A DNA stretch of 64,000 nt. It comes from Candidatus Parvarchaeota archaeon (lineage in GTDB: Archaea; Nanobdellota; Nanobdellia; WJKC01). Both the position numbers and the translations under genes were made by a program. Where the stretch lies: NCBI GenBank assembly GCA_030615175.1, contig JAUWZX010000001.1:460044-524043 (forward strand), read 5' to 3'. Below are positions 2,324-58,122 of the stretch, piece by piece. The number at the start of each line of letters is the position of its first letter. The first letter of the stretch is position 1. The notes beneath the pieces are model-generated. The model worked only from the letters and a program-made list of their open reading frames with translations. It did no database searches and was not told where the DNA came from.

Positions 2324-2554
2324 TCACCTGTATTTATTAAAACCTAACTCCTTAGCTTTGTCCCTGAAGCACTGCCTGCAGATATGCAGTCCGTAACGGC
2401 TGATGTGCCCTCCTCTCCTGCCGCAAATCTTGCACTTATTCTTGCCCTTGCCTGTTTTCCTAATCTTTGGCTTATTATGCTTCAAGTACTTCACTAGTTT
2501 AACTCTCTTATTTATTAACTGCTTTATTTTCTTCTTATATGATTTAGCAGTCAT
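2324..2554 (-). CDS. rps14: ribosomal protein uS14 (zinc-binding type)
   Basis: [35 protein letters not shown] matches the C-x2-C...C-x2-C uS14 core. Confidence 0.9.
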
Positions 2555-4500: not shown

Positions 4501-4832
4501 TTCTCCTTCACCTTTAGTATTACAAATTTCTTAGTCTTGCTTAAAGGCCTGCACTCCATTATCACTACTTCATTACCTGTTTTGGCGTTAATGCATTCAG
4601 GGTTATGAGCCTTAACTCTGCTCCTCTTCTTCATATACCGCTTGTATTTCTTAAGCCTTACAATCCTAGGCCATTCAACAGTGGTTGTCTTAGCCATTCT
4701 ATCACTGATTACTCTGCCAGTGAATATTCTGCCGCGCACGCTTAACTTGCCATGCCAAGGGCACTTGCTGTCACTGCACTTATTCTCCGGCGGTTCAATG
4801 CCTTTTATCCCAATACCTTTACTCTTTACCAT
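4497..4832 (-). CDS. rps17: ribosomal protein uS17
   Basis: CPWHGKLSVRGRIFTGRVISDRMAKT... is an archaeal uS17 sequence. Confidence 0.9.
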   Translation of the reverse strand: MVKSKGIGIKGIEPPENKCSDSKCPWHGKLSVRGRIFTGRVISDRMAKTTTVEWPRIVRLKKYKRYMKKRSRVKAHNPECINAKTGNEVVIMECRPLSKTKKFVILKVKEK

Positions 4833-5107
4833 CTCTTCACCAATTTTTTCCTTCGCTTAATTCTTTTCTCAGGCCTGCCAATTAATGCTTCTCCAGGCAC
4901 TTTTACTTCTCCTTCTTTTGTCTTAATCAATAGTGTTATATTCTTTTTTAATATTTTCCTTAAGCCGTTTATTGTATCAATGCTTAGCGTGTTCCTTGTT
5001 TCATCCACTACCCTGCCTTTAATTCCTTTTAAGGTTTCATTCCTTGCTTCTATAATATTTACTTTTAATCCAATGATTTCATGTCTTACCTGTTTTTTTA
5101 ATTTCAC
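4826..5107 (-). CDS. rnp1: RNase P protein component 1 (Rpp29/Pop4)
   Basis: HEIIGLKVNIIEARNETLKGIKGRVVDETRNTL is the Rpp29 Sm-like core. Conserved archaeal position before uS17. Confidence 0.8.
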   Translation of the reverse strand: MKLKKQVRHEIIGLKVNIIEARNETLKGIKGRVVDETRNTLSIDTINGLRKILKKNITLLIKTKEGEVKVPGEALIGRPEKRIKRRKKLVKRW

Positions 5108-5423
5108 TTAAATTATCTCCTTCAATCTTGAATCCTTTATGCCGTAAAAATTTTTTAACGCTTTTCCTATGGTTTCCTTGGAGTTCAATCCAGTTATTTT
5201 CCCTGTCATAAACTCCTCCGCAAGCAAGTTTTTTCTTAAGGTATTTAATTAATTTCTTTAACTCATTTGATTCCAATTCATTCCAGTCAAGTCCCCTAAT
5301 TATTGTTACTGGCTTACCCCATTTCCTTGAAGTCACTATAATGCTTAATTTCTGTGATTCCTTTACTATTTCTTCACAAGTGCATATTTCTTTTGGCAAC
5401 CCGCATTTTGGGCAAACTGTCAT
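5079..5423 (-). CDS. sui1: translation initiation factor aSUI1 (eIF1 homolog)
   Basis: N-terminal Zn knuckle CPKCGLPKEICTC plus SUI1 core LKKKLACGGVY...IELQGNHR. Confidence 0.85.
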   Translation of the reverse strand: MTVCPKCGLPKEICTCEEIVKESQKLSIIVTSRKWGKPVTIIRGLDWNELESNELKKLIKYLKKKLACGGVYDRENNWIELQGNHRKSVKKFLRHKGFKIEGDNLSEIKKTGKT

Positions 5424-5429
5424 TTTTTT

Positions 5430-5639
5430 TTACTTCATACCTCTCTCTTTTTTTATTGTATTAATCCTGGCAATTGTTTTCTTAATCTCTTTTATCCTGC
5501 CAGGATTCTCTGGATTAACCTTCGAGGCTGACTGTGCTTTAGCCTTCATTAATTCCTTCATTAATTCTTCACTCTTCTTTTTTAATTCTTTTCTGTTTAA
5601 CTCTCTTATTTCCTTCTTCTTTAGTATCGCCATGAGCAC
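5430..5639 (-). CDS. rpl29: ribosomal protein uL29
   Basis: LKKKEIRELNRKELKKKSEELMKELMKAKAQ matches uL29. Overlaps the K/E-rich 3' end of the uS3 ORF by about 70 nt. Confidence 0.85.
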   Translation of the reverse strand: MLMAILKKKEIRELNRKELKKKSEELMKELMKAKAQSASKVNPENPGRIKEIKKTIARINTIKKERGMK

Positions 5640-6264
5640 TCACCTCCTCGCTTTGAACTTTTTCAGGTGTTTTTATAATATTAAACTGGTCAGGCGTCTT
5701 GACGTAAGGGCTTAGTATGTTTACTTTGACTCCTACGCTTCCCTGTTTCCATTGAATGTCTTTGAATCCTTTATCAACTAAATTATTAGCGACATGACCA
5801 TTTTTTGGAAGTCTTCCTTCCTTAAACCTCCATGTTTTATGCCTTTTGCCTGGAATTCTTCCTGATATGACGACTTCAGCTCCTACTGCTCCCGCTTTCA
5901 TAATCCTTCGCAGGGTGTTGTAACCAATCGCCTTGAACCTTGTTTTACCGAATCTCTTTATTTGGTACACGATTCTTTCAGCCATTATGTTAGCATCAAG
6001 TTCAGGTTCCCTGACTTCATTAACTTCTAATTGAGGGCTTTCAAGTTTGAACTTCTTTTTTAGGAGTCTTGTCATTTCAGCAATGTTTTTCCCTCCCTTG
6101 CCAACTATTATGCCAGGCTTGCTCGTGTTAATCTTGATTTTAAGCCCTAAAGGCGTTTTTTCAATTTCAGCGCTGCTGTAACCGGCATTAACAAATTTTT
6201 CTTTTAAGTAACTCTTAATTTTATACTCTTTTACTTTATTCTCAATGAATTTCCTTTCAATCAT
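5569..6264 (-). CDS. rps3: ribosomal protein uS3
   Basis: KH domain (GIIVGKGGKNI) and uS3 C-terminal domain, with a charged C-terminal tail. Confidence 0.9.
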   Translation of the reverse strand: MIERKFIENKVKEYKIKSYLKEKFVNAGYSSAEIEKTPLGLKIKINTSKPGIIVGKGGKNIAEMTRLLKKKFKLESPQLEVNEVREPELDANIMAERIVYQIKRFGKTRFKAIGYNTLRRIMKAGAVGAEVVISGRIPGKRHKTWRFKEGRLPKNGHVANNLVDKGFKDIQWKQGSVGVKVNILSPYVKTPDQFNIIKTPEKVQSEEVSAHGDTKEEGNKRVKQKRIKKEE

Positions 6265-6728
6265 TTTTTCTTCACTTCTTTTGTAATCTTCTTTTTCTTT
6301 TCAGTCTCTTCTTTTTCCTTAACTTTTATCCTAATGCTTAATGATTTAGCACTCTTAATGAAAGGCCCTTTTCTTGCGCGGAGCCGCTTGTTCTTGCTTA
6401 TGTTCATCATTGTTATTGCCTCATGCACGTATAATTTCTCCTCTTGCAGTCCCTGATTAACAGCGTTATTTTTAGCATTAAATAGTAATTTGATTATGTG
6501 GTCACACGCCTTGATAGGATATCTTCCAGCACTCATTCCTCTTTTATGACCCATATCCTTCTTATATCTCTTGAATGGCACTGCCCGTTTGAAGTTCTTA
6601 ACTAATTCAAGCCTTTCAATTGCTTTGTCAAGATTCATTCCTTTAATCATATTTAACACTTCTCTTACATGCTTCCTGCTTATTGGAAGCCTGCTTCCTG
6701 CACCAACCGCAACATTATAATCCTTCAT
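6261..6728 (-). CDS. rpl22: ribosomal protein uL22
   Basis: uL22-like core (ISRKHVREVLNMIKGMNLDKAIERL) with a K/E-rich tail. Confidence 0.9.
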   Translation of the reverse strand: MKDYNVAVGAGSRLPISRKHVREVLNMIKGMNLDKAIERLELVKNFKRAVPFKRYKKDMGHKRGMSAGRYPIKACDHIIKLLFNAKNNAVNQGLQEEKLYVHEAITMMNISKNKRLRARKGPFIKSAKSLSIRIKVKEKEETEKKKKITKEVKKK

Positions 6729-7136
6729 TTATTTCACCGGCACGAACTTGCTTGACCTGCTTGCACCAACCCCTGGACTCGAGTGCTTAACCATCTTCCT
6801 AGTCATTGCATATTCACCTAATGCGTGTCCTATCATTGAATTCTTTATTAACACTTCATAGAATTCCTTTCCATTATGCACTTTAATCGTTAAGCCAACC
6901 ATTATTGGCAATATTATGAAACTCCTTCTATGAGTCTTAATGTCATTCTGCGGCTTGCCTGAGTCAACAGTCTTTCTTGCTTCTTTAATTCTCTTCACCA
7001 GTCTTGGATTATTCTTTAATAATCCTCTCTTAATAGCCCTTCTAGCCCTTGCCGGCATTAATTTAATTACTTCATCCAATGGCATCTTAATTAATTCCTC
7101 AATTTTTTTACCCCTGTAATTAAATTCTCTTACCAT
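6729..7136 (-). CDS. rps19: ribosomal protein uS19
   Basis: VHNGKEFYEVLIKNSMIGHALGEYAMTRK matches uS19. Confidence 0.9.
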   Translation of the reverse strand: MVREFNYRGKKIEELIKMPLDEVIKLMPARARRAIKRGLLKNNPRLVKRIKEARKTVDSGKPQNDIKTHRRSFIILPIMVGLTIKVHNGKEFYEVLIKNSMIGHALGEYAMTRKMVKHSSPGVGASRSSKFVPVK

Positions 7137-7143
7137 TACATTA

Positions 7144-7869
7144 TCACTTCTTTTTCCTTCTCCCTGTTCTTCTTGAAGCTATTGTTCCGACCTTTGCTCC
7201 TGGAGGAGCTCCCCTGCTAACAGTTCTTGACTTCCTGTTCCTGCCTCCTCCACCACCGTGAGGGTGCTCTACAGGATTCTTTGAAGTGGCTGAGACTATT
7301 GGCCATAACTTGCCTTTGGCTTTTTTCTTGTAATAATTCTTGCCTGCTTTTACTAATGGTTTTTCCCCATGCCCTCCGCCAGCAATAACACCTATTGTTG
7401 CCCGGCAATTATTATTAAATGTCTTGAACTTCTTTGATGGCAGTTTAATGACTGTTTTTTCATCACTTTTCTGCACAATCCTTGCACTGTTACCAGCAGT
7501 TCTTGCAATTGAGCCGCCGTCGCCTGGCGTTAATTCAATATTATTTATCGTTGTTCCTTCAGGTATTGATATTAATGGCAGGACGTTGCCTGGCTTGATG
7601 CTTGCAGTTGCTCCATATTCTGTTATATCTCCTTTCTTTATTCCAAGAGTTGCTGGCAGTGCAGTTATTTGATTTTGATGCTTGATTATCATTAATGGCG
7701 CGCTCCTTGCAGGGTCATGTAGCAATTCAATTACTTCTCCTTTAATCATTCCTTCTTTCTCTGCTGCCTCGTAAGTTTTGTATTCACATTTTGCCTTGTA
7801 GCGGTGGCTTTTAGCCCTGTAAGTAGTTGTTCCTTTTCCACGCCTCCTAGTTATCGTTCTCCTCGGCAT
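7144..7869 (-). CDS. rpl2: ribosomal protein uL2
   Basis: NPVEHPHGGGGGR and the rest of the uL2 core. Confidence 0.95.
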   Translation of the reverse strand: MPRRTITRRRGKGTTTYRAKSHRYKAKCEYKTYEAAEKEGMIKGEVIELLHDPARSAPLMIIKHQNQITALPATLGIKKGDITEYGATASIKPGNVLPLISIPEGTTINNIELTPGDGGSIARTAGNSARIVQKSDEKTVIKLPSKKFKTFNNNCRATIGVIAGGGHGEKPLVKAGKNYYKKKAKGKLWPIVSATSKNPVEHPHGGGGGRNRKSRTVSRGAPPGAKVGTIASRRTGRRKKK

Positions 7870-7870
7870 C

Positions 7871-8122
7871 TTATATCATTCCTAATTCAGTTCCAACGTC
7901 TAATGCATTGTTTGAAGTGCTTAATTTTATGTAAGCTTTCTTCTCATTCTTCGTTGTTATTAAAGTCCTTACTTTTAATACTTTCACGTTGAATAATTCT
8001 TCAACTGCTTTTTTAATTTTTATTTTATTTGATTTTTCATTAACTATTAGTGTCAGGGTATTCTCAGCTTCCATTAAGCGCACTGCTTTTTCACTCATTA
8101 CAGGCCTTATTATTACATCCAT
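7871..8122 (-). CDS. rpl23: ribosomal protein uL23
   Basis: Sequence and position between uL4 and uL2. Confidence 0.85.
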   Translation of the reverse strand: MDVIIRPVMSEKAVRLMEAENTLTLIVNEKSNKIKIKKAVEELFNVKVLKVRTLITTKNEKKAYIKLSTSNNALDVGTELGMI

Positions 8123-8862
8123 AATTTCTCTTCCCCTATTCTTTTTATTGCTCCAAGACTGAATACTGCTGTCCTGCCAGGACTTCCTCCTGGAGCTAAT
8201 AATTCAATGTTTAATTCCTTAATTATTGCAGCATTAACTCCTGGTATGTTATTACTTGCCTTTATGGCATCGCATTTGTCATTGAATACTAGTAATGGTC
8301 CTTTCTTGTACCTCTTAATTCTGCCGCGCATTTTGCCCTTGCCTGCCTTCCTGCGCACTACCTTCTCTAATTTCAATCCATTCTTATTTAATGCCTTTAT
8401 TAATTCCTTTGTCTGCTTTATTGATTCCATTTTATTCTCTATTATTACTGGCTTGCAAGCGCTTAAAGCACTTCTTATCGCCTTCCTTCGCTCCTTCTTA
8501 TTAATCTTCTCCTTAATCTTTTTCTCTGATTTCGGCGGGTGAGCAACCCTTCCCTTTACTGTGAACGGCGCCATTGCCCCTACTAGCATGAATCTCCTGC
8601 CCCTTGATGATAATGTTTTCCTTGGAGTCCTGCTCCTGCCTGCGCCGTAAACTGTTTTGTAAGCCCTTCTCCTCTTGCTTAAGTAAACAGCCCATCTATT
8701 GCCAGCTCCTTTCATTACTCCTTGAGGTTGAATCTTATGACTTCTTAATGCATTAAAAGCTCTTTTAATCAAGTCCTTTCTGACATCTTCATTGAATTGT
8801 TCTGGCAGTTTTATTGTCATTACTTCCTTGCCAGTTATTGAATTAACTTTCATTTCCTGCAT
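8113..8862 (-). CDS. rpl4: ribosomal protein uL4
   Basis: GAGRSRTPRKT...RGRRFMLVGAMAP is an archaeal uL4 core. Confidence 0.9.
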   Translation of the reverse strand: MQEMKVNSITGKEVMTIKLPEQFNEDVRKDLIKRAFNALRSHKIQPQGVMKGAGNRWAVYLSKRRRAYKTVYGAGRSRTPRKTLSSRGRRFMLVGAMAPFTVKGRVAHPPKSEKKIKEKINKKERRKAIRSALSACKPVIIENKMESIKQTKELIKALNKNGLKLEKVVRRKAGKGKMRGRIKRYKKGPLLVFNDKCDAIKASNNIPGVNAAIIKELNIELLAPGGSPGRTAVFSLGAIKRIGEEKLWM

Positions 8863-9842
8863 CCCTGACTGCTTTTAAGGCTTAAGTATTTGATTTGAGG
8901 AGCTATTTTCGGAGTTTTCTTATTAATTCTTACTGGGAATCTGAGGATTATGAGCCTTTTTCTCGGACCCATCACGCTGCCTTTTAGCACTACGTAATCC
9001 TTTTTTATTATTCCATAACCTTTGAATCCTCCTTTAGGATTAACTTCTTCAGGCTTGTTTCCTATTTTTAGTATTAATTTATTAAACTCTGTTCTCGTAT
9101 GGTAACCCATTTGACCGAATTGAGGCACTCTCCAACTAACTTTGCTCCAGTTAGAGCCAAGCGTTCCTGCACCCCTCTTCGTCTTCTCGCTTTTATGACT
9201 TCTTATTCCAACACCATGCCTTTTAACGCTTCCCTGAGTGCCTTTTCCTTTAGTGACTCCATTAATGTCGATTTGCATTCCTTCTTTAAATATCTCGCTT
9301 ATCCTTATCTCCTTGTCAAGCGCTTCTTTTGCGTACTCTTTCTTTTCTTCAATGGTTCCTCCAAGCCCTACTTCAAATACTTCAGGCGTCTTCTTTAGTT
9401 TTATTAGGTTTGGCTGTGTTTGAACTATTAACCTGATATCATCATAATCAGTAATGTCTTCGAATTTTTTTGAATCCTTTTTTGATTGTTTTATTTTTCT
9501 TTTAAGGTTTTTATCGAATTTTTTTGTTAAAATTTGAGAAATAGTTTTTTTGCCGTAAGGCGTGTCCTTATAGAATCGCAACCCAATGATTTTCAAGGGT
9601 GGCGCTTCAAGTATTGTTACTGGCCAGAAAATGGGTTTATTCTTTGTGGGCGTGTTCTTCCTGTTATCAATTATTATTGCATGGCTCATCCCTGCCTTAT
9701 AAGCAGCGAATCCCACTCCTCCTGTCACTCCACTCACTTCTTTCCAGTTTACTCTAGGATACTGCCTCTTCGCTCTCTTCCTGTGCCAGTACCCCATGCT
9801 CCCTCTGTGAGGTCTGTGCACGTATCCAACTTTATGTCCCAT
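8850..9842 (-). CDS. rpl3: ribosomal protein uL3 (first gene of the operon)
   Basis: HRPHRGSMGYWHRKRA...GVTKGKGTQGSVKRHG matches uL3. Confidence 0.95.
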   Translation of the reverse strand: MGHKVGYVHRPHRGSMGYWHRKRAKRQYPRVNWKEVSGVTGGVGFAAYKAGMSHAIIIDNRKNTPTKNKPIFWPVTILEAPPLKIIGLRFYKDTPYGKKTISQILTKKFDKNLKRKIKQSKKDSKKFEDITDYDDIRLIVQTQPNLIKLKKTPEVFEVGLGGTIEEKKEYAKEALDKEIRISEIFKEGMQIDINGVTKGKGTQGSVKRHGVGIRSHKSEKTKRGAGTLGSNWSKVSWRVPQFGQMGYHTRTEFNKLILKIGNKPEEVNPKGGFKGYGIIKKDYVVLKGSVMGPRKRLIILRFPVRINKKTPKIAPQIKYLSLKSSQGCRK

Positions 9843-21232: not shown

Positions 21233-21352
21233 CGCTGGGGGTGGGATTTGAACCCACGAGTGCAGAGCACACAGCCTTTCAAGCATTTAATGCTAAACCA
21301 TCTTTATGGGTTTTCCAGGGCTGCGCCGTGGACCGGGCTTGGCTACCCCAGC
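21233..21352 (-). tRNA. tRNA-Ser (anticodon GGA) with an intron of about 35 nt after position 37
   Basis: Hand-folded. Acceptor GCUGGGG/CCCCAGC, discriminator G, anticodon stem CAGCC/GGCUG, loop CU-GGA-A, long variable arm GUGC-UCU-GCAC, T arm GUGGG-UUCAAAU-CCCAC. No encoded CCA. Confidence 0.85.
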
Positions 21353-45012: not shown

Positions 45013-45333
45013 ATGAAGTATTTTTTAGTATACAATAATTCTGAGAATAACCCTGTTATTGCTCAAATACGTTTGAATAAGGAACCAGTAATTGGTACAA
45101 GAATCTTATTCTATGATAAGGACCCAATGCTGGATTTTGAAGAAGAAGTGACAGGAGTAAAGAATGATTGCTTAAAAAACATAGACTACGCAAGCATTTA
45201 TAAGATAACCAAGAAATTAATTCACGATAATGGCATAATTGAAATAAGGAAAACAAAGAATTTCAGAGAAGAACCGAATTCAGAACTGGAAAGAAAGTTA
45301 ATAATGCTAAAGCCAAGCAACCACTCTAGTTAA
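45013..45333 (+). CDS. hypothetical protein (106 aa)
   Basis: ORF only. Confidence 0.45.
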   Translation: MKYFLVYNNSENNPVIAQIRLNKEPVIGTRILFYDKDPMLDFEEEVTGVKNDCLKNIDYASIYKITKKLIHDNGIIEIRKTKNFREEPNSELERKLIMLKPSNHSS

Positions 45334-46042
45334 GAATCCTTGTTAAATCAAATTTTTTGCCATCAAATTCCCTTGTAATCTCGAAAAAATTAATTCCACG
45401 CTTATCAATATACTTTAATGAATAAGGAATGTCAGCGAAGATATTCAATTTCTCTAAATTTTTAATATTAAACCATTTATTAAGCCTGTCAACAGTCTTC
45501 TTTTTCAACTCACCAGCAAATTCATTACACTTGAAGACATAGAATAAATGATGAGAATGAATATCATCCTTATTATACGTTCTCATTGAGTAAATAATTT
45601 TAAGCTTTAAATCCTTAGGCACGTAACCAGTTCTCTCAATAGTTTGCCTGACAGCGCTTTCCTTAATTCCTTCCCCAAAACGCACTCTGCCAACAACACT
45701 AGTAGCCCAAACCCCTTTAAACGGCTCTCTTTCAAGCCTTGATAACAAAATCTTACCCTCCTCCCTAATAATCACTCCGGCAATAACAAATGGCTGCTTA
45801 TGAACCCCCATGTCATTTAAGTCAACATAAATCGCTAATTCATTGCCAGTATTAGTTAATGAATACAAACCATCCTCATCCTTTTTTATAATACCAAGCT
45901 TAACTAATTTATTCAAATGATAGTTGAAGTGATTAGAACGAATATTACTATCCTGCAACTGTGAAAAACTAAGTCCAGACGCATACATTAATTTCTTAAA
46001 AATGTTCTTTCGAACATCATGATTTAATAAATTTAACTCCAT
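45326..46042 (-). CDS. wHTH + degenerate Nudix domain regulator, paralog 1
   Basis: N-terminal wHTH (LSFSQLQDSNIRSNHFNYHLNKLVKLGIIKK). C-terminal Nudix fold with box GRVRFGEGIKESAVRQTIERTGY, where the RE-x2-EE glutamates are mostly lost. Confidence 0.65.
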   Translation of the reverse strand: MELNLLNHDVRKNIFKKLMYASGLSFSQLQDSNIRSNHFNYHLNKLVKLGIIKKDEDGLYSLTNTGNELAIYVDLNDMGVHKQPFVIAGVIIREEGKILLSRLEREPFKGVWATSVVGRVRFGEGIKESAVRQTIERTGYVPKDLKLKIIYSMRTYNKDDIHSHHLFYVFKCNEFAGELKKKTVDRLNKWFNIKNLEKLNIFADIPYSLKYIDKRGINFFEITREFDGKKFDLTRILN

Positions 46043-47922: not shown

Positions 47923-48180
47923 CTAATCGAATAATTCTGATATTAAGTCCTGTATTTTCATTAGTGAGGATTGCACTCCCTTAACGTCACTAATGGAATC
48001 CATGGCAACTTCACCAACTTGAGTTTCATTAGTTATCATTCCTGTCACTGCCTCGTAAACACCGCTTACCTGCTCGCCAAGGGAGTTTAATAAAGGGATT
48101 ATAACAAACAACCCAACAAATAATATAATAACACCAATCCAGACAGTTACTATTAATTTTATCATGCTCTTCTTATTCAC
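47923..48180 (-). CDS. 85-aa single-pass membrane protein, translationally coupled to the giant gene
   Basis: N-terminal TM helix LIVTVWIGVIILFVGLFVIIPLL. Its start overlaps the giant ORF stop by 4 nt. The C-terminus SSLMKIQDLISEL resembles the giant-protein tail SLELMIQDLSDIL. Confidence 0.65.
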   Translation of the reverse strand: MNKKSMIKLIVTVWIGVIILFVGLFVIIPLLNSLGEQVSGVYEAVTGMITNETQVGEVAMDSISDVKGVQSSLMKIQDLISELFD

Positions 48181-51100
48181 ATTAATCCCTCCATTAAATC
48201 ATATACTTTAACAAGTATGTCTGATAAGTCCTGAATCATTAATTCTAGACTATTATAAATGTAATTAACATTCGCTTCTGACGGCTGGTCCTTAACAGTA
48301 GTGATATATGTTTTCAAGTCATCAGCCCTGTTAATTAAGTCATGGTAACTATCATATATAACCTGCCACTCTGCCAGTTTACCAGTTTCTCCCACATCAT
48401 TATAGTAACTAATAACGCCCAGTAAGTCCAGTAGACTATTATTAAGTTCTTTATTAAATGAGGTAAGCCTGGCATCTAACTCCTCTAACTGCATTTTATA
48501 AGCCATGGTCGGGTTATCATCCTCTGTTATGAATTTTGAAATGCACTTATTGTTAATGCATACAGGTATTGCCTTGCCCAGAGTGCATTCAGTAATCACT
48601 GAAGGACAGATAGGGTTAAGTTCAGCCAGGCTCTTAGTGATTGCACCGCAACCAGAGTAACACATGCAGTCATCATCAGTAACGCATCCTAACTCAACTT
48701 CTTCATCTATAACGTAAGTAATATTGCTTTCATCAACTTCCTCATCAATGCACATGTTATCTGAGCAATTCATGCCAGCGGGGCAGCCAGCATCTAAACA
48801 GCAGTTAAATGAAGTTTCGTAATCCTGTACTACGCCGTCACCGCAAGTTGCTTCATCAACGCATGAAATCTCTAAAGGTGAAATTAAATCACAAGTTCCA
48901 ACCGTGCAGGTACAGTCCAGACAGCATGCTTCAGATGTTTCACTTGGACTGCAGATGCCGTCACCGCAGTACTCTTCTGCACAAATAAAGTCCTCTGGCT
49001 TAATGAAGAATAATATATCCCATCCAGTGATTGTCTGTGATAAGGCAGTGTAAGGTAGGCAAACGCCGGTCTCGCAGCCAGCATCTAAACAGCAGGTTTC
49101 AGGTGTTTCCCCTGCTGAAACAAGCCCGTCACCGCAGAAAGCATTATTCATTGGAACGCAGCCCTTAACATTAGCATAAGAAGAGGTTAAATTACAAACT
49201 TTGTTACCGCAGTCACAATCATTTGGTGCTGTAACGCAGTTTTCTCCAACACTTGGCGAGCAAATGCCATTAGTAGCGCATACCTGAGGCGAGCAGTCAT
49301 AAGAGCATGAAGTGCATTCTCCAGGACCGCATTTCTTGTCACCGCAGCATGATTCAGCTCCTCCAGGGCACTCGAATACTGGCACGCAGCCCATTTTATC
49401 AGCTCTTACATTATCAGGGTCGCATTCAATGCTGCTAGGACAGAAGCAGGCAGGTGAGTTAAGGCAATTATCTCCTAAGCCGGGACTGCATATCTTTGAT
49501 GAATTAACAAATCCCTCTACCGTGATGCAGCCCATTAAGTCAGCGCTTGGAGCTACTGCGCCGTCAGAGTGAACACCGCAATTAAATCCTATAGGGCAAA
49601 CACAGTCTATTGGGTTTGCGTAACAGTTTTCTCCATAACCGCATCTGTAATCAATAATGTTTTCATAAATAACGCAGCCCTGCAAGTCAGTTTTTACGCT
49701 GTCAGGATTGCAGTATGAATCTTTAGGGCAGCGAGCGCAGTCAAGTGAATTCATGCAATTCTCAGTTCCATCGCACACGCCGTCATTACAGACTTCACCG
49801 GAAGGGCAGTCATCTATTTTTAATTCAATTTTGTAAACACAGCCCTTGAAATCAGAATCCTTGCTTCCAGGATTGCATTCAGCTCCTGATGGGCACGCGC
49901 AGTCAATTGACTTGCAGTTCTCTCCGAAGAAAGTGTCGCAGTAATCATCCCCTTCTTCAAAATCGTAGTCAAGCATGCATCCCATGAAGTCCGCGCTTGA
50001 GTCTTTTGGATTGCATATGAATCCTTCAGGGCATTCGCAGTCGCTTGAACTTAAGCAGTTCTCGTTAGGGTCGCAAACATTTTTCCCTCCAACGCATTTA
50101 ATATCCTGGCACCACCCAGTGTTTTGTTCTGTTGTATTCATCATTACTCCTGAAATATCATACATTGTGGTTAATATCATGTTCTCGCACCAATTCCTTC
50201 CAGCGCTTTCACAGTTTTCTTTAGTGTAACAATTCCAGTATTGTTCATAACCGCATGTCGGGCAGGTATAGTCTGTGCACCATGTCTCACACCAGTTACC
50301 ACTCACATTAAGGCATTCTGATTCAGTGAAGCAGTTCCACGGCATGCTTGAACTGCAGGTCGGGCAGGTATAGTCGCTGCACCAGGAGCCCCATTTATCA
50401 CTGCACCAGTTACCTTCATTATTAACGCACTCGCTTTGAGTATAGCAGTTCCATGGCGTGCTTGAACTGCATGTTGGGCAGGTATAATCTGTACACCATC
50501 CGCCCCACATATCAGAGCACCAGTCGCCATTTATTCCTTCACAGTCTTTTTCACTGGCGCAGAGCCATACCTGTTCATTGCTGCACACAGAGCACGCGTA
50601 CTTATCACACCAGGAGCCCCACTCGTCAGAGCACCAGTTAGCTTCCGCTCTCTCGCACTCGCTTTGAGTATTGCAGTTCCATGGCAGGTTTATTGAGCAC
50701 TTAGGGCACTCATAGTAACTGCACCAGTCACCGCACCAGTAACCGCCTGCTGATGTGCACTCAGAAGCTGTTGAACAGAAATCAAGATAATCCTTACTGC
50801 ATGATATACATTTTTCTGACTGGCACCAACCGTTCTTTTCATCACCGCACCAGTTTGCTCCAGCACCCTTGCATTCAAGTTTTGTTTTACAATTCCATGA
50901 CTGGTATTCTAAGCACGTTAAACAAGGAGTTTCCTGACAATAATTATCACACCAGTAATTATTATTTACTATGCAGTCATCTTCAGTATAGCAATTCCAT
51001 GGCATGCTTGAACTGCATGTTGGGCATTCATAGTCGCTGCACCATCCGCCGTAATGACTTTCACACCATTTAGCTCCTACATTAGTGCATTCCTGTTTTG

Positions 51101-54100
51101 AGAAGCAGTTCCACGGCTCGCTTGAACTGCATGTTGGGCAGGTGTAGTCGCTGCACCATGTGCCGCACCAGCTTCCTTCATTATTAATGCATTCGCTTTT
51201 TGTATAGCAATTCCATGGAGTATCCTTTGAGCATGTAGGGCAGGTATAGTCACTGCACCAATTGCCTCCCCAATTATCAATACACCACTTACCGCCAACA
51301 CCTTCACATTCATCTTTTGAATAACAATTCCACGGCTCTGATTTCTTGCACGTTGGGCATTCATATATTGATTTCTGGCACCAGCCGCTCGTGAATGATG
51401 TTGCATTAGCACTAATGCTTTCACACCAGTTACCGCCAGCGCTTTCACATTCATTCTTTGTATAGCAGTTCCATGAACTTGCTGCTGAGCAAATGCCAGC
51501 GCATATGTAGTCACCATAATCATTTATTTTACAGAAAGAGTCACCCCAGCACGCGCATTCAGGGTCAAAGCAGTCAACTAACCCGTCATTATTATCATCT
51601 ACCCTGTTACTGCAAACTTCTGTTACTGCTCCGCAAGACCATGACTGGCACCAACTACTCCATGCGTCAGTGCAATAATAACCGCCAGCGCTCTTGCAGG
51701 ACTCTTTTGTATTACAATTCCATAATTCATCTGAACTGCAGGTTGGGCATTCATAATTGCTGCACCACGTGTCGCACCAGTTTACTCCAGCATTACTGCA
51801 GTCCTTTTCAATGTAGCAGTTCCACGGCATGCTTGAACTGCAGGTCGGGCATTCGTAGGAATCACACCACGTTCCGCACCAGTAACCATTATTAGAAGTG
51901 CATTCTGTTTCTGTCTTGCAGTCCCATAAGTTTTCAGAACTGCATTCGCTTGCACAGTAATAAAACCCTTCAGCATCCTTTTTGCATGACTTGTCGTTAG
52001 GGCACGCGCAGTCCTCATCATTACAGTCTATTTTAGTATCCTTATCATTATCTAATCCGTCACCGCATATTTCGTATAGTTTTGTTTCACCGCAAGGAGA
52101 GATTTGACACCAAGTGTAGCCGTATTCATTAGTGCACCAGTAACCTCCAATGTCAGGGTTAGTGCATTCTGTTTCTATATTGCAATTAAATAAATCATCT
52201 TTACTGCATTGAGGGCATTGGTTTGTCTGGCACCATGAGTATTCTTCATAGTATTTATCCGTACACCAGTATCCTTCTGCTCCACTGCATTCTGTTTCAG
52301 AGTAGCAGTTCCATATGTTTGTTGAACTGCAGTCAGAACAGTATTGTGATAGAGTGCAGTAAGGACTGCAAGTTGAGCATACATTAGTGCACCATGTTCT
52401 ACTTACTCCTTCGCACTCGCTTTGAGTGTAGCAGCTCCAGTAATTGCCTTCAGTGCATTCTGAACAAGCATTTGTCTGGCACCAGGCGTAATCTGCACCA
52501 CCGCACCAGTAACCATTATTAGAAGTGCATTCTGTTTCAGAGTAACAGTTCCATATGTTTGTTGAACTGCAGTCGTAACACCATTGAGGGTCTGTGCAGT
52601 AAGGCTCGCATGTTAGGCAGATGTTTGTGCACCAATCCCCTCCTGCCCCTTCACATGATGTCTGGTCTTTGCATTTCCAGTAATTATTCGAGTCACATGT
52701 TGCGCAAGTATCTGTCTGGCACCATCCTGGACTCCATTCATCAGCACACCAGTGACCGCCTGCATTCGTGCACGTTGTCTGCGTGTAACAGTTCCATACA
52801 TCAGTGGAACTGCATTGTGGGCATGAGCCTATGGTCGTGCACCAGGGATCGCATGTTAGGCAGATGTTTGTGCACCAATCCCCTCCTGCTGTTGTGCATG
52901 TTGTTTGGTCTTTGCATTTCCAGTAATTATCCGAGTCGCATACTGTGCATTCGTTTGATTGGCACCACCCTGTTCCGCAACTTGAATCATAATCATAAAG
53001 GCACCAGTAGCCATTATTAGAATTGCATTCTGATTCAGTGTAGCAGTAACTTACTTGACTGCCTGTACTGCAACTGCAGTCATAATTAGCGCACCAGCCG
53101 GTTCCACCGCAACTGCCAGTGCACCAGTAATAACCTGTTCCAAGACCTTCACAATCTGTTTGATTATAGCAATACCAGTAATTCGTTGTTGAACATTCAT
53201 ATGCTGAAGTGCACGTGACACTGCAGCAGTTATAAGAATCCGTTGCTGTTAAGTAAGTTCCAGAGCAAGTCTCTTCTGGTGAGCACATGTCTCCTCCCTG
53301 CTCTGAGCATGTTTTAGGGCAATCCGTGCTGCTTGATGCATAAACATCGCCTGAGCAGCAGTATCCTGAGTACTTATCAATGTTTTGGCATTTGCACCCG
53401 CTTGAAGGTATTACTCCTTCAGTGCAGTTAGACAGTTCCCCTGTTTCAATGCATTGACCCATGCTGCATGTTTTTCCGCTTGCAGTGCAGTTCTCTTTTT
53501 CCCATGAACTCCATACTGAGTGGCTGCATCCTCCATTAGCGCATGTGTACAAGTGTCTTTCCTGAACAACTTTGTCATTATAGCAGGATGGTTCTCCTAT
53601 GTATACTTCGCCGCCGCATTCAGCGTCAGTAGTGCATGAATTAATAGTGAATGTTAGGTTCTGCGTGCTTACTTGACTGCTCGTGTCTGTTGCCTCGACA
53701 GTTATTGTATGCGTTCCAGTAATGTAAGTTGAGACAGTTGTATTGTAATCGCAGCTCGTGCCTGAACAGGTTATTGTCACGCCTGATTGGAATGCCCAGT
53801 CCCCGTACCACCTGGCACTGCTGATTCCAATGTCATCAGTTATTGTAGCAGTTAAATTCATTTCCAGTCCAGCGTACTGGGTTGATGGCGTAAGGCTTGC
53901 CGTAACTGAAGGATAACTGTCAAGAATGCATGCTTTTAAGATAGAGTCATAAACATAATCTGTTGCGCAGTCTGCACTGGAATTGGCGTAGTAGCACTCG
54001 TGAGTTGTTAAGTCGCAGTACCTCACTGCATCTGCTCCTGAGCTTGAATAATTCATGCTGTACATGTTATTGCACATTAAGTCAGCATTGCATCCTGACA

Positions 54101-54440
54101 GGCAGTCAGCGCTTCGGCAGTGGCAGCCCCAGCCATAAGTTGCATCTGTATATTTTGCGTAAGGGCAGAAATAACCTTCACTATCACAATAATGATGATA
54201 ATAAGTGCTGCATTGAGTTTGAGAGCAGTCTGAAGCACAAGTATCACAATTACTTGCTGTAATACAAGTATTACTGTCAGTGCACCAGTGTGCTCCAGCG
54301 GTTTCACAATCAGTTTGTGTTGTACAAAAGTCAAGTGTTGCATTAGAACAAGAAGTATTATCTAATGCATCCGCGAAGACGGTGTTAATAATGGCAAAAG
54401 TAGTAATTATAAATAATAACAGAATCTTCTCCTTGTCCAT
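48177..54440 (-). CDS. giant secreted cysteine-repeat protein (2087 aa)
   Basis: Uninterrupted 6.26-kb ORF. Signal peptide ILLLFIITTFAIINTVFA-DA. One Ig/PKD-like segment. About two dozen modules of roughly 40 aa of the form C-P-T-C-S-x4-W-N-C-Y-T-x2-E-C-x4-G-x-W-C-x-D-x-W-x2-W-C-x2-Y-x-C. A second type of Cys module follows, and the C-terminal ~120 aa are Cys-free and helical. Confidence 0.85.
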   Translation of the reverse strand: MDKEKILLLFIITTFAIINTVFADALDNTSCSNATLDFCTTQTDCETAGAHWCTDSNTCITASNCDTCASDCSQTQCSTYYHHYCDSEGYFCPYAKYTDATYGWGCHCRSADCLSGCNADLMCNNMYSMNYSSSGADAVRYCDLTTHECYYANSSADCATDYVYDSILKACILDSYPSVTASLTPSTQYAGLEMNLTATITDDIGISSARWYGDWAFQSGVTITCSGTSCDYNTTVSTYITGTHTITVEATDTSSQVSTQNLTFTINSCTTDAECGGEVYIGEPSCYNDKVVQERHLYTCANGGCSHSVWSSWEKENCTASGKTCSMGQCIETGELSNCTEGVIPSSGCKCQNIDKYSGYCCSGDVYASSSTDCPKTCSEQGGDMCSPEETCSGTYLTATDSYNCCSVTCTSAYECSTTNYWYCYNQTDCEGLGTGYYWCTGSCGGTGWCANYDCSCSTGSQVSYCYTESECNSNNGYWCLYDYDSSCGTGWCQSNECTVCDSDNYWKCKDQTTCTTAGGDWCTNICLTCDPWCTTIGSCPQCSSTDVWNCYTQTTCTNAGGHWCADEWSPGWCQTDTCATCDSNNYWKCKDQTSCEGAGGDWCTNICLTCEPYCTDPQWCYDCSSTNIWNCYSETECTSNNGYWCGGADYAWCQTNACSECTEGNYWSCYTQSECEGVSRTWCTNVCSTCSPYCTLSQYCSDCSSTNIWNCYSETECSGAEGYWCTDKYYEEYSWCQTNQCPQCSKDDLFNCNIETECTNPDIGGYWCTNEYGYTWCQISPCGETKLYEICGDGLDNDKDTKIDCNDEDCACPNDKSCKKDAEGFYYCASECSSENLWDCKTETECTSNNGYWCGTWCDSYECPTCSSSMPWNCYIEKDCSNAGVNWCDTWCSNYECPTCSSDELWNCNTKESCKSAGGYYCTDAWSSWCQSWSCGAVTEVCSNRVDDNNDGLVDCFDPECACWGDSFCKINDYGDYICAGICSAASSWNCYTKNECESAGGNWCESISANATSFTSGWCQKSIYECPTCKKSEPWNCYSKDECEGVGGKWCIDNWGGNWCSDYTCPTCSKDTPWNCYTKSECINNEGSWCGTWCSDYTCPTCSSSEPWNCFSKQECTNVGAKWCESHYGGWCSDYECPTCSSSMPWNCYTEDDCIVNNNYWCDNYCQETPCLTCLEYQSWNCKTKLECKGAGANWCGDEKNGWCQSEKCISCSKDYLDFCSTASECTSAGGYWCGDWCSYYECPKCSINLPWNCNTQSECERAEANWCSDEWGSWCDKYACSVCSNEQVWLCASEKDCEGINGDWCSDMWGGWCTDYTCPTCSSSTPWNCYTQSECVNNEGNWCSDKWGSWCSDYTCPTCSSSMPWNCFTESECLNVSGNWCETWCTDYTCPTCGYEQYWNCYTKENCESAGRNWCENMILTTMYDISGVMMNTTEQNTGWCQDIKCVGGKNVCDPNENCLSSSDCECPEGFICNPKDSSADFMGCMLDYDFEEGDDYCDTFFGENCKSIDCACPSGAECNPGSKDSDFKGCVYKIELKIDDCPSGEVCNDGVCDGTENCMNSLDCARCPKDSYCNPDSVKTDLQGCVIYENIIDYRCGYGENCYANPIDCVCPIGFNCGVHSDGAVAPSADLMGCITVEGFVNSSKICSPGLGDNCLNSPACFCPSSIECDPDNVRADKMGCVPVFECPGGAESCCGDKKCGPGECTSCSYDCSPQVCATNGICSPSVGENCVTAPNDCDCGNKVCNLTSSYANVKGCVPMNNAFCGDGLVSAGETPETCCLDAGCETGVCLPYTALSQTITGWDILFFIKPEDFICAEEYCGDGICSPSETSEACCLDCTCTVGTCDLISPLEISCVDEATCGDGVVQDYETSFNCCLDAGCPAGMNCSDNMCIDEEVDESNITYVIDEEVELGCVTDDDCMCYSGCGAITKSLAELNPICPSVITECTLGKAIPVCINNKCISKFITEDDNPTMAYKMQLEELDARLTSFNKELNNSLLDLLGVISYYNDVGETGKLAEWQVIYDSYHDLINRADDLKTYITTVKDQPSEANVNYIYNSLELMIQDLSDILVKVYDLMEGLM

Positions 54441-54506: not shown

Positions 54507-54809
54507 ATGAGTTTTATTAATAGTTTAATATTCATAGCAGTAGGATTTATTGGCTTATTACTTGTCAAGGCTGCAGTCAAGGCAGTGTCAATAATATTCA
54601 TCATATTATTAGGAATTGGAGTGCTGGGCTTGATTGGTTATGACATAACTGACTTCCTGACAGGAACAGTGACTAATATTACTCGGGCTGAATTAGTGAA
54701 TAAGTCGCTTGAGCTTAAGGAATGCGTTGTACAGGCCTGTAACTGCAGTCAGGGCATAGTGATTGACTGCATAACGCAGACAATAATCCCCATTAACCTG
54801 ACTACTTGA
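54507..54809 (+). CDS. small membrane protein (100 aa) with C-terminal Cys motif
   Basis: Two TM helices, then ECVVQACNCSQGIVIDC. Divergent from the giant gene. Confidence 0.5.
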   Translation: MSFINSLIFIAVGFIGLLLVKAAVKAVSIIFIILLGIGVLGLIGYDITDFLTGTVTNITRAELVNKSLELKECVVQACNCSQGIVIDCITQTIIPINLTT

Positions 54810-54819: not shown

Positions 54820-55686
54820 CTAATGAAGAATTAGGCACTTAAGGTAGTCCTTGCCTGTTCTTTGTTTTAGTAATTTTTTCCACGCGTTCTCCAGAGTCTT
54901 AGGCTTGAATTCAGGAGGTTCATTACCATTTAACCGCGTGTAAGTTGGCGAGTAAAGAGAGATTTGCAGTATATTAACTTTTTCAGGCCGTTGTATCACC
55001 ACGTCAAATAAGTCCTCTAAATCCAGTAAGTCTTTCTCGTCCTGTATTAAGTCAATTAAGTAAATTGAATAATCATCAAGCACGTCCTCCATGTACTCTA
55101 AGTTCTCCAACTGCTTGTACCAAATCTTGCCTGGCAGCCCGGTATTTTCCTCAAAATTCTTTTCACTTATCCCTTTAATGCACATCTGGAATTGCACGTT
55201 TGACTGATTGATTAATTCTTCCTTATGAAGCTTTCTCGTTAAGTTAGTGTCAATGTTTAATCCGTATTCATGAGGGAATTCACGTATTATTTTGTACAGG
55301 AATTGCGGGAAAAGTGTTGGTTCTCCTCCACTAATCCTTAATGCATTAACATCTTCATTCTCATTTAAGTAAGTCACTACTTCATTGAGTACCTGATTAA
55401 CTGGTTTATTAATCCCCCTGCTAGCATCCTTGTTCTTGTCATCAACATAGCAGAACCAGCAGTTCATATTGCATTTATTAACCTGGCTTGTTAGAACCTT
55501 GTTCGTTTTATAAGGGCTTAAGCCAAGTTTTCGCGATGCCACGAATGGAACCCTGCCAAATTCTTTCTTCTTCTTATTAATATTCCACATGTAATAGTAA
55601 ATCCTGTAAGTATCATTTATTATATCACCGCTTTTCTTAATATCCTCTTTCTGTTTTCCTTCATTAAAGTTTGTTAAATAAACCAA
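54820..55686 (-). CDS. radical SAM enzyme, paralog 2 (288 aa)
   Basis: CNMNCWFCYVD (C-x3-C-x2-C) and ISGGEPTLFP (GGE SAM motif). Aligns with the 377-aa paralog along its length. Confidence 0.75.
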   Translation of the reverse strand: MVYLTNFNEGKQKEDIKKSGDIINDTYRIYYYMWNINKKKKEFGRVPFVASRKLGLSPYKTNKVLTSQVNKCNMNCWFCYVDDKNKDASRGINKPVNQVLNEVVTYLNENEDVNALRISGGEPTLFPQFLYKIIREFPHEYGLNIDTNLTRKLHKEELINQSNVQFQMCIKGISEKNFEENTGLPGKIWYKQLENLEYMEDVLDDYSIYLIDLIQDEKDLLDLEDLFDVVIQRPEKVNILQISLYSPTYTRLNGNEPPEFKPKTLENAWKKLLKQRTGKDYLKCLILH

Positions 55687-55754: not shown

Positions 55755-56471
55755 TCATCTAATAATCTTGGTTAAATTAAATTTCTTGCCATTGAACTCT
55801 CTTTCAAGCTCTAAAAAAGTAATTCCACGCTTATCAATATACTTCAAAGTGTAAGGAATGTCAGTGAAAATATTAAGCTTCTTAACATCTTTAATATTAA
55901 CCCATTTGTTAAGCCTGTCAGGAGTTTTCTTTTTCAGTTTGCCGGAAAAATCATTACACCTTAAAACATAAAACATGTGATGAGAATGAATATTATTCTC
56001 TTTATTTGTTCTTATTGAGTAAATAATTTTAAGCTTTAAATCCTTAGGCGCGTAACCAGTTCTCTCCATAGTTTGTCTGACAGCACTTTCCCTTACTCCC
56101 TCCCCGAAATGCATTCTACCCACCACGCTTATAGCCCACACGCCCTTAAATGGTTCCCTCCCAAGCTTTGATAATAAAATCTTATCTTCTTTTCTAATAA
56201 CCACTCCTACAATCACGAAAGGCTGCTTATGTACTCCCATCTCATTTAAGTCAACATAAATCGCCAGTTCTTTGCCAAGATTGCTTAATGAATACAAGCC
56301 ATCCTCATCCTTTTTTATAATACCAAGCTTAACTAATTTATTCAAATGATAATTAAAACGATTAGAACGAATATTACTATCCTGTAATTGTGAAAAACTA
56401 AGCTTTGACTTATACATTAATTTCTTAAAAATTTTCTTACGGACATCATGATTTAATAAATTTAACTCCAT
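55755..56471 (-). CDS. wHTH + degenerate Nudix domain regulator, paralog 2
   Basis: 238 aa, collinear with 45326..46042. Long identical nucleotide runs near the 5' end of the gene. Confidence 0.65.
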   Translation of the reverse strand: MELNLLNHDVRKKIFKKLMYKSKLSFSQLQDSNIRSNRFNYHLNKLVKLGIIKKDEDGLYSLSNLGKELAIYVDLNEMGVHKQPFVIVGVVIRKEDKILLSKLGREPFKGVWAISVVGRMHFGEGVRESAVRQTMERTGYAPKDLKLKIIYSIRTNKENNIHSHHMFYVLRCNDFSGKLKKKTPDRLNKWVNIKDVKKLNIFTDIPYTLKYIDKRGITFLELEREFNGKKFNLTKIIR

Positions 56472-56988: not shown

Positions 56989-58122
56989 TTAAGCGTTTGC
57001 TAAAATGTCTTCAATAATGCTTGGTCTTGATATTTCCTTATAATGCTTTCCGAACTCTTCAATGCATAATCCGTCCATTACTTGCTCGCTTCTGGCATAG
57101 TAATCATTCCATTCACTTACTGCTTCATCTATTTTATCACCATATCTTTCTTTCACTGGACCGTAAGGACCAATCTTTAATATATGCATGAAAGGAATTA
57201 TCTTCCTGCCATAATCCTGCGCTAATTCATTCATAAAGCCTTCAAGTGTTTCAGGATTTGGATTAATAATGTATGCATAAGTCCTGATTCCATTACTTAA
57301 TAATTTCTTAAAAGTGTATAATTGCTCTTCAAGCAATTCCCTTCCCTGCTCCGCGTTTCTTCCTATATTACGAGCCAGGTTCTCCGGGTCGCTTCCCTTA
57401 AAGCAGTAAAGAACGTTGAAATTCTTATACTTGCTTACTTGTTCAAATAAGTCTTCTTGCATTTCCTTGTTCTTAATCCATCTGTTCCATGCATGACCTG
57501 TTGTGCCGTTACAGTCAGATTGTACTGATACTTTCTTGCTTAAACCATATTCTTCCAATAATTGCAGTACTTCAAGCCATTGTTCAGGCGCTAAAGTTGG
57601 TTCTCCTCCACTAGGCCTGAATTGATTCAATGCTACTCCTTCATCATTTTTTCTTTCACGGAATTTAATGAATGAATCAATTATTTCACGCATACTGAAG
57701 TATTCAGCCCCATGGTCTGCTCTGCCATTATTATTGAACCTGTCTACGAAACAGAACTTGCAGTTAATATTGCATCCTTTTAATTGGTAGATGAAAACGT
57801 TAGTGTATTCTTCTATTATTTCTCTCGGCACGTCCTGCAATCTTGCAGTGTTGTACGCACCTGTCGATTCTATTGCCCAGAAATCCATGTCAAAAGGTAA
57901 TACTTGATTATTCTTTGTTGCAAAGTACTCGTCAAGCTGGTAGTCCTTCAAGTTTGTTTTAACTCTGAAGAAGTCATTAATGCTTCCCTTGACATTGCCT
58001 TTAGTTTTATCCAAGTCCTTCTGCTGCTCGCTGCCTGCAAAGTTAGTTAATAAGTACTTTCTAACACCGTCTTCAATCTTCATTACTCTATGCCTTAAAA
58101 GTGTTGGTAGTGTCCTCGTCAT
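56989..58122 (-). CDS. radical SAM enzyme, paralog 1 (377 aa)
   Basis: GCNINCKFCFVD (C-x3-C-x2-C) and PSGGEPTLAP. N-terminal extension of about 100 aa. No C-terminal SPASM-type Cys cluster. Confidence 0.75.
   Translation of the reverse strand: MTRTLPTLLRHRVMKIEDGVRKYLLTNFAGSEQQKDLDKTKGNVKGSINDFFRVKTNLKDYQLDEYFATKNNQVLPFDMDFWAIESTGAYNTARLQDVPREIIEEYTNVFIYQLKGCNINCKFCFVDRFNNNGRADHGAEYFSMREIIDSFIKFRERKNDEGVALNQFRPSGGEPTLAPEQWLEVLQLLEEYGLSKKVSVQSDCNGTTGHAWNRWIKNKEMQEDLFEQVSKYKNFNVLYCFKGSDPENLARNIGRNAEQGRELLEEQLYTFKKLLSNGIRTYAYIINPNPETLEGFMNELAQDYGRKIIPFMHILKIGPYGPVKERYGDKIDEAVSEWNDYYARSEQVMDGLCIEEFGKHYKEISRPSIIEDILANA

Follow-up and report, generated by a model that had tools for sequence, protein, structure and literature searches.

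A giant cysteine-repeat protein and its small membrane partner as a candidate two-gene cell-surface cassette of a DPANN archaeon

The window analysed in this study (the whole 64,000-nucleotide stretch of contig JAUWZX010000001.1, from a Candidatus Parvarchaeota archaeon) carries two overlapping genes on its (-) strand, and this gene pair, all of whose features given below lie on the same strand, is the subject of this report. The larger gene is an open reading frame (ORF) with an ATG start at 48177..54440, encoding a secreted cysteine-rich protein of 2087 amino acids (aa), hereafter the giant protein. The smaller gene (47923..48180) encodes a protein of 85 aa, hereafter the partner. It begins with a GTG codon and overlaps the stop codon of the giant gene by 4 nt, in the sequence ATGTGA. 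A Shine-Dalgarno-like GGAGG, read from the sequence and presumably functional, is located 7 nt upstream of the partner GTG (48188..48192). The overlap and the GGAGG together fit a partner whose translation is coupled to that of the giant gene.

The giant protein contains 280 cysteine residues (13.4%) and 82 tryptophan residues, the tripeptide WNC occurs 15 times, and the last cysteine is residue 1966. Its cysteine codons are skewed to TGC (222 versus 58 TGT) despite a genomic guanine plus cytosine (GC) content of about 35%, which may reflect translational selection. The N terminus is a Sec-type signal peptide (residues 1-24, 54369..54440), in which MDKEK is followed by a hydrophobic core and a putative cleavage site at VFA/DA. 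In a Kyte-Doolittle scan over 19 residues (KD19) the sole hydrophobic stretch of the protein was residues 4-27, the only segment with a value above 1.6. Because this N-terminal signal peptide is the sole hydrophobic segment, the giant protein itself lacks a membrane anchor. The original prediction, made from the sequence of the window alone, had claimed both the signal peptide and the absence of a C-terminal anchor, and the scan agrees with it on both points.

Behind the signal peptide, an N-terminal cysteine-rich region without a Pfam match (residues 25-175, 53916..54368) leads into a segment resembling immunoglobulin-like (Ig-like) and PKD domains (residues 176-266, 53643..53915). The prediction of an Ig/PKD-like segment is supported by weak Pfam matches to Big_7 (PF17957, E = 8.8e-4, 20.3 bits, cut-off 24.1) and PKD (PF00801, E = 0.006, 17.0 bits, cut-off 23.5), but neither reaches its gathering threshold. 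Given weak matches to several Ig-like families, an Ig-like fold is plausible for these residues. The segment is the best-conserved part of the alignment with the homologue P0001 introduced below, and a scan with the alignment of the Ig region found no relatives in GTDB representative genomes or JGI metagenomes. A further cysteine-rich region is conserved in the alignment with P0001 and has no Pfam match (residues 267-415, 53196..53642). It is followed by an array of tandem modules rich in tryptophan and cysteine, the W/Cys modules (residues 416-1448, 50097..53195). Next comes a second repeat class, read from the sequence, with about six copies of the pattern C..GENC..S.DC.CP.G..CNP...D..GC (residues 1449-1690, 49371..50096); Pfam gave a weak match to EGF_Tme5 here, below its cut-off (E = 0.002). 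Repeats of the type CGDGxC...ET...CC.DAGC, also read from the sequence, occupy residues 1691-1918 (48687..49370), and the last of them shares 50% identity with its counterpart in the family member P0039. The last cysteine-containing segment has no Pfam match (residues 1919-1975, 48516..48686). The protein ends in a cysteine-free domain, the 'dock' domain, which AlphaFold2 and family homology identify as a putative three-helix bundle (residues 1976-2087, 48180..48515).

The W/Cys modules were delimited by cutting at the anchors C-x2-C...W-x-C and by scanning with a profile hidden Markov model (HMM). This gave 24 modules of 34-56 aa each, with the pattern C-x2-C-x6-W-x-C-x5-C-x5/6-WC-x(2-n)-WC-x4. 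The predicted 'about two dozen' modules and the 15 occurrences of WNC were thereby confirmed. Six invariant cysteine residues per module had also been claimed; four are invariant in the giant protein, and the other two occur in 90% or more of its modules. A super-repeat of 240-243 nt at window positions 52286-52972, with copies 76-82% identical, corresponds to alternating modules of a 6-Cys and an 8-Cys type, and since the super-repeat matches this alternation, the array probably grew in part by duplication of two modules at a time. The array is interrupted by two inserts of about 45 aa, insert 1 at residues 783-828 (51957..52094) and insert 2 at residues 936-979 (51504..51635), which have the motif CGDGxDNDxDxxxDCxDxxC in common. 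Both show the pattern C..DNDxDGLxDC.DP.C, in which they may resemble the C-rich, calcium-binding domain of teneurin (PDB ID: 7plp). For residues 937-974 of insert 2 phmmer gave a borderline match to teneurin-4 (7plp_A, E = 0.011), and neither insert was matched by a Pfam model. With no more than 2 x 45 of the 2087 residues covered, the motif is silent on the main module.

Four consecutive modules (residues 1028-1172) were modelled with AlphaFold2 on an alignment of 73 four-module rows from the family, and the resulting model had a predicted local distance difference test score (pLDDT) of 92.5. Each module in this model has its turn at WNC, one helix of six residues and a beta-hairpin that bears both W-C pairs. 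Searches for relatives of this module were negative. Pfam contained no family at E <= 1 for the whole giant protein or at E <= 5 for the four-module segment, NCBIfam gave no match to the module, and a profile of 36 modules found nothing below E = 0.41 among PDB sequences. Foldseek, queried with the four-module model rather than with a single module, found nothing significant in the PDB (best match follistatin, E = 1.2, template-modelling score 0.15), and its best match in BFVD had E = 1.7. The module was likewise unmatched by profile HMMs of the EGF, Kazal/follistatin, furin-like, TNFR, Giardia VSP, Paramecium surface antigen and Myxococcus Cys-rich repeat families, and in the literature searched there was no account of a cysteine-rich surface family of the DPANN archaea (Diapherotrites, Parvarchaeota, Aenigmarchaeota, Nanoarchaeota as well as Nanohaloarchaeota). 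Judged by these searches, the W/Cys module belongs to no named family within Pfam, NCBIfam, PDB and BFVD, as the original prediction had supposed. In kind it is like the cysteine-rich modules of eukaryotes (follistatin FS/Kazal, EGF-like, Giardia VSP CXXC), which also form disulfide-rich tandem units of about 35-40 aa in secreted or surface proteins; follistatin, although the top structural match, was an insignificant one. Neither invariant W-C pairs nor a staple from one repeat to the next is known from the follistatin/Kazal, EGF-like or Giardia VSP families. Giardia VSPs bear a C-terminal transmembrane helix of their own.

The pairing of the module cysteines, numbered C1 to C6, was assessed from their joint loss in 171 full-length modules of 46 proteins, which provided 129 junctions between a module and the following repeat. 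C2, C3, C4 and C6 are essentially invariant, and about 9% of the modules lack C1, as about 9% lack C5. Losses of C1 and C5 within the same repeat showed no association (p = 0.64). Across the repeat boundary, C1 of the following repeat was absent in 10 of 10 cases in which C5 was absent (nine proteins) and present in 112 of 119 in which C5 was present. Fisher's test over the 129 junctions gave p = 8e-11, a generous value since the sequences compared are related, although the pattern itself is clean. Most of the seven exceptions are found where an array ends or where the hairpin of a module has an additional cysteine. Because C5 of one module and C1 of the next vanish together, C5 is suggested to pair with the cysteine five residues past C6, and the structural unit would therefore be C2...C6-x4-C1', with a dispensable third bond. 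Module variants, the 6-Cys and 8-Cys types, gain cysteines two at a time. The co-loss is evidence for fixed pairing of the module cysteines, in the simplest case as disulfides, one of which would cross the repeat boundary.

When the whole giant protein was searched against a word index of 5.8 billion proteins, a single homologue was returned, P0001, of 1616 aa (E = 1e-148). A HMMER profile of two adjacent modules was run exhaustively against 1.84 billion cluster representatives and matched 101 proteins with E <= 1e-3, of which 44 had E <= 1e-10 and 12 had E <= 1e-30; the giant protein itself matched the module HMM with E = 4e-231. The named family members are annotated as 'hypothetical protein' and stem from Candidatus Diapherotrites and Nanoarchaeota, and the family loci are flanked by archaeal housekeeping genes (ribosomal proteins, TFIIB, RNase P p29). 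Module count and domain order vary widely among the orthologues. These profile matches indicate a W/Cys family that is rare but real.

The cysteine-free tail of the giant protein aligns with a helical domain of about 105 aa near the C terminus of the large family members. AlphaFold2 predicted residues 1976-2087 as a three-helix bundle (pLDDT 94.4, predicted template-modelling score 0.82) with helices at positions 2-41, 44-74 and 80-111 of the segment, in agreement with the earlier claim of a helical tail of about 120 residues without cysteine; the domain found comprises 112. A bundle HMM matched 24 of 103 module proteins, including the giant protein (E = 3e-21). In most of the 24 the bundle is followed by a further cysteine-containing domain of about 100 aa, and in seven, among them the giant protein, P0039, P0028 and P0014, it is the C-terminal end. 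Since family members such as P0039 likewise end at the bundle, the giant protein is not a truncation. Among PDB sequences, the bundle profile matched nothing but designed coiled coils and apolipophorin, matches that reflect generic helical composition, and Foldseek likewise returned only generic helical-bundle neighbours, with FAT/PAT among the weak matches (E >= 0.65).

The partner carries a predicted transmembrane helix at residues of about 8-31 (48088..48159), which follows the sequence MNKKSMIK and reaches a KD19 maximum of 3.09; the residues before it include three K/R and no D/E. The 85-aa ORF with a 4-nt overlap and one N-terminal transmembrane helix thus corresponds to what had been predicted. 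Following the positive-inside rule, the partner would be oriented N-in/C-out, with its conserved helix outside the cell. This helix, at residues of about 49-85 (47926..48036), is acidic and amphipathic, with a net charge of -4 and a hydrophobic moment of 1.80.

Whether the partner accompanies the giant protein elsewhere was assessed at the 3' flanks of bundle-bearing genes at 13 loci. At 10 of these (the window, L001, L007, L010, L011, L014, L015, L016, L021 and L022) the bundle gene is followed by a same-strand ORF of 64-103 aa, the homologue of the partner gene, usually 1-8 nt past the stop codon (280 nt at L022). All ten products have a K/R-rich N terminus, a transmembrane helix or lipobox, and a net-acidic amphipathic C-terminal helix. 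Partial versions are found at L009 and L012, and none at L024. The partners are poorly conserved (15-27% identity), and the conserved part is only the predicted extracellular helix. A lipobox-like motif takes the place of the transmembrane helix at L010 and L021, which suggests that lipid anchoring may be an alternative in some lineages; the motifs, LVITGC and FIASC, were noted in the partners at L010 7553-7750 and L021 ~5660-5850. Two module proteins without a bundle served as controls, P0018 with an N-terminal and P0095 with a C-terminal transmembrane helix, and neither has a partner gene beside it. Further bundle-less module proteins, such as P0065 and P0069, end in a transmembrane helix of their own and a basic tail. 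As it is present at most of the bundle loci and absent beside P0018 and P0095, the partner tracks the bundle, which bears out the functional coupling that had been proposed for the two genes. From this distribution, bundle and partner together seem to replace a covalent anchor, and the conserved gene pair occurs in Diapherotrites, Nanoarchaeota and Woesearchaeota-type genomes at the least. The giant protein shares the full set of family features: signal peptide, modules, a bundle near the C terminus and a downstream partner with a transmembrane helix or lipobox and a helix. A type IV pilin-like nature of the partner was considered and rejected, as the class III signal-peptide motif, [KR][GA] immediately ahead of the hydrophobic stretch, fits only L010 (KKA/IIII) among 12 partners inspected; the N terminus in the window reads KKS/MIK, and the remaining partners have long basic N termini or lipoboxes.

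Homology between the C-terminal helix of the partner and the last helix of the giant protein, described in the original prediction as a matching or echoing pair, was rejected. BLASTP did not recover the claimed echo (best E = 0.55, in another alignment), a Smith-Waterman comparison of tail and partner scored 30 against 24.8 +/- 4.4 for shuffled sequences (p = 0.14), and hhalign gave a probability of 3% for the profile of the partner helix against that of the tail. The resemblance is at chance level; a p value of 0.044 was obtained only in a post-hoc comparison of the last 20 with the last 35 residues.

The interpretation that we favour, with moderate confidence, is that the two genes form a cell-surface cassette of a DPANN archaeon, in which a disulfide-stapled fibre is held non-covalently by a dedicated anchor. 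The giant protein would be exported via Sec and fold as an extended chain. The Ig-like 'head' together with the N-terminal cysteine-rich region would form the distal, interacting end, followed along the chain by the 24 W/Cys modules with the two calcium-binding-like inserts among them, the further cysteine repeats and the three-helix bundle. Within the array, C5 of each module would form a disulfide with the first cysteine of the next repeat. The 85-aa partner would sit in the membrane N-in/C-out and display its acidic amphipathic helix outside, where this helix most likely packs on the three-helix bundle and so would tether the fibre non-covalently. A docking of the partner helix on the bundle is plausible as a predicted contact, and would have a mechanistic analogy, implying no homology, in FAT/PAT bundles and LD-motif helices, where a short acidic amphipathic helix also lies on a helical bundle. 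FAT/PAT domains are four-helix, cytoplasmic and eukaryotic, and bind LD-motif helices. The function of the fibre may be adhesion to a host or surface, or it may be part of the envelope, and the pair is a good candidate for a cell-surface or host-attachment structure. A bolder and tentative extension, which we consider rather less probable than the cassette itself, is a general DPANN 'dock-and-anchor' system, in which the three-helix bundle of diverse secreted fibres is made into a four-helix bundle by the helix of a dedicated mini-anchor, either a transmembrane protein or a lipoprotein, and a new class of disulfide-stapled W/Cys fibre contacts hosts or minerals.

Several observations weigh against the cassette interpretation. 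Tail and partner helix have no sequence relation (p = 0.14; hhalign 3%), and both are net acidic and offer no charge complementarity; because both elements are acidic, a putative contact between them would be hydrophobic or cation-bridged. One clade lacks a proper partner, as the ORF next to P0006 at L012 encodes 55 aa without a transmembrane helix and L024 has none. P0005 and P0008 retain a partner yet end in a short hydrophobic tail, a possible sorting signal. The negative controls number only two, and the disulfides are deduced from co-loss, not seen. Short conserved tails of the form ...P[LI]SGL..F.L...GK or ...ITG.[AV]IRR were noted at the ends of P0005 (L011), P0008 (L015), P0003 (L010) and the proteins at L021 and L022; they resemble signals for sorting or anchoring, and yet the small partner gene is retained at these loci.

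Two alternatives concern the giant protein itself. The long ORF could be an assembly chimera or a decaying pseudogene, in view of its repeats and of a GC content (0.44) above that of its neighbours. However, the DNA repeats within the gene are only 60-85% identical, and Tandem Repeats Finder reported no tandem array in it. An independent contig of 1253 nt from another metagenome (L020) encodes residues 672-1088 without gaps, including about 11 modules and both inserts. Over these 417 codons it is 95.3% identical to the giant gene in nucleotides and 94.5% in amino acids, with a dN/dS of 0.16, and none of the 23 substitutions hits a cysteine or tryptophan. Since L020 is collinear and its dN/dS is 0.16, the giant ORF is a selected gene with the module order as assembled, at least over residues 672-1088. 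The GC excess is found at codon position 2 (0.526), and for this reason it reflects amino-acid composition rather than foreign origin; horizontal transfer as its source was rejected on the same ground. The overall architecture is moreover common to homologues of 1117-1755 aa. The check for a chimera gave no support for one, an assembly artefact as the origin of the ORF is effectively excluded, and chimera or decay together are hardly credible. The other alternative holds that the cysteines bind metal, in a metallothionein-like protein or an extracellular Fe-S/Zn matrix with a role in metal sequestration or redox, and a metal-binding surface structure had indeed been proposed in the original prediction. 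The cysteine content of 13.4%, a CxxC in each module and the probably anoxic groundwater or sediment from which the samples came (judging by their names) speak for it. Yet cysteine loss across the boundary is strictly pairwise while four cysteines are invariant, and variants add cysteines in twos; because the pairs are fixed and grow by twos, disulfides are favoured over a set of metal ligands. The pair-specific co-loss (p = 8e-11), although indirect, is not what a joint ligand set of the metallothionein kind would leave. The AlphaFold2 fold is compact and free of ligand (pLDDT 92.5), the conserved Trp/Tyr beside the cysteines suggest a packed mini-core, and Pfam matched no metal-binding family. 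Metal binding by the cysteines is unlikely on these grounds, and as an account of the whole protein we give the metal explanation very little weight.

The two other alternatives accept a secreted protein with paired cysteines and differ in what the pair does, and both are unlikely, although far less so than the preceding two. In one, the pair is the main envelope coat, resembling a surface layer (S-layer), with the giant protein as the outer layer and the partner as stalk or anchor, rather than a specialised adhesin. In the SlaA/SlaB system of Sulfolobales, too, a large Sec-exported outer protein without an anchor is encoded beside a smaller membrane-inserted holder. SlaA is not cysteine-rich and forms a lattice that is held by SlaB via helical contacts; SlaB comprises about 400-475 aa with a C-terminal transmembrane helix and a coiled-coil stalk. 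The giant and partner genes mirror the slaAB arrangement, a resemblance of architecture only. The cassette occurs once per locus amid housekeeping genes (ribosomal proteins, TFIIB, RNase P p29), several DPANN lineages carry it, and it is under purifying selection, all of which an envelope coat would explain. In contrast to SlaB, the partners comprise 55-103 aa and have an N-terminal transmembrane helix or lipobox, with an ectodomain of only about 50 aa in the window. No homology to known S-layer proteins was found with Pfam, PDB sequences or Foldseek, SlaA/SlaB not being compared directly, and in the latter two neither sequence nor fold resembled the solved S-layer proteins. Moreover, 38-aa modules arranged as beads on a string are unlike lattice-forming domains, the variable module number and domain order among orthologues are more typical of adhesins, and the bundle is present in only 24 of 103 module proteins. 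In the second, which we rate about as improbable, the partner is an accessory factor that helps, for example, in the export, folding or assembly of the giant protein, or it is a co-transcribed membrane peptide of no relevance to it, and the giant protein is released or held otherwise. The acidity of both bundle and partner helix, the clade that keeps the bundle without a transmembrane-bearing partner, and the very short and divergent partner sequences (15-27% identity) fit such a factor. Against it, the presence of the partner follows that of the bundle rather than that of the modules, the bundle-less relatives carry covalent transmembrane anchors, and the sole conserved part of the partner is the extracellular helix. 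Two partners also exchange the transmembrane helix for a lipobox, so that membrane attachment is kept and the specific transmembrane sequence is not.

The anchored-fibre interpretation places the pair in a known kind of arrangement, a repeat protein of the cell surface whose anchor is a second protein; the domain family from which it is built is undescribed. By analogy, the pair would come closest in its working to archaeal surface systems of two components (SlaA/SlaB) or to repeat adhesins anchored by another protein, but none of the homology tests made it a member of either. Most DPANN archaea have not been cultured, little is known of how they attach to hosts or surfaces, and their lineage-specific surface proteins are nearly all annotated as 'hypothetical'. 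The locus offers a confidently foldable mini-domain without detectable relatives in Pfam, PDB or BFVD, and the conserved gene pair points to a division of labour in which a separate mini-protein does the anchoring. If confirmed, the pair could provide markers and reagents for studies of DPANN cell-cell contact. The dock-and-anchor extension, if true, would amount to a new protein fold and to a new way of anchoring archaeal surface proteins non-covalently, and beyond Nanohaloarchaeota it would offer a concrete candidate for the apparatus, long sought, by which DPANN archaea attach. In Nanohaloarchaeota, the very large and mostly extracytoplasmic SPEARE proteins have been proposed to serve host contact; they contain laminin-G, serine-protease and (type III) restriction-endonuclease domains and a transmembrane helix of their own (PMC6642349). 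The giant protein differs from these in that Pfam found no laminin-G, protease or restriction domains, no transmembrane segment exists beyond the signal peptide, and anchoring apparently depends on a second gene.

The remainder of the window places the organism among the DPANN archaea; the original prediction had assumed a small-genome episymbiotic archaeon. Its ribosomal protein L3 (8850-9842) is 79% identical to that of a 'Candidatus Parvarchaeota archaeon' metagenome-assembled genome (MAG), 66% to that of a Nanoarchaeia MAG and 56% to those of Woesearchaeota MAGs. An episymbiotic lifestyle is deduced from this lineage. The L3 gene is part of a ribosomal-protein operon at 273-9842 (-), in which L3 and L2 were identified by Pfam. 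A tRNA of 120 nt, presumably intron-containing, was detected by Rfam at 21233-21352 (-) with 41.7 bits and missed by ARAGORN; it also fits an archaeal genome. Closer to the giant gene, a divergent ORF of 100 aa (54507-54809, (+)) starts 66 nt upstream and encodes two hydrophobic helices and a cysteine-rich tail KECVVQACNCSQGIVIDC; it has no Pfam match, and the other family loci lack a conserved counterpart. The giant locus is flanked by paralogous genes for proteins with a winged helix-turn-helix and a NUDIX domain, located about 10 kb apart at 45326-46042 (-) and 55755-56471 (-) and identical in 83% of nucleotides and 79% of amino acids. Upstream of each is a gene for a radical S-adenosylmethionine protein (54820-55686 (-) and 56989-58122 (-)), and the duplicated pair looks like a segmental duplication around the giant locus. 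At another family locus, L025 (contig Ga0210057_1000043, 272 kb), the gene for P0095 lies between genes for products of 9288 aa and 3286 aa, and from its gene content this locus appears to be a cluster of genes for giant surface proteins.

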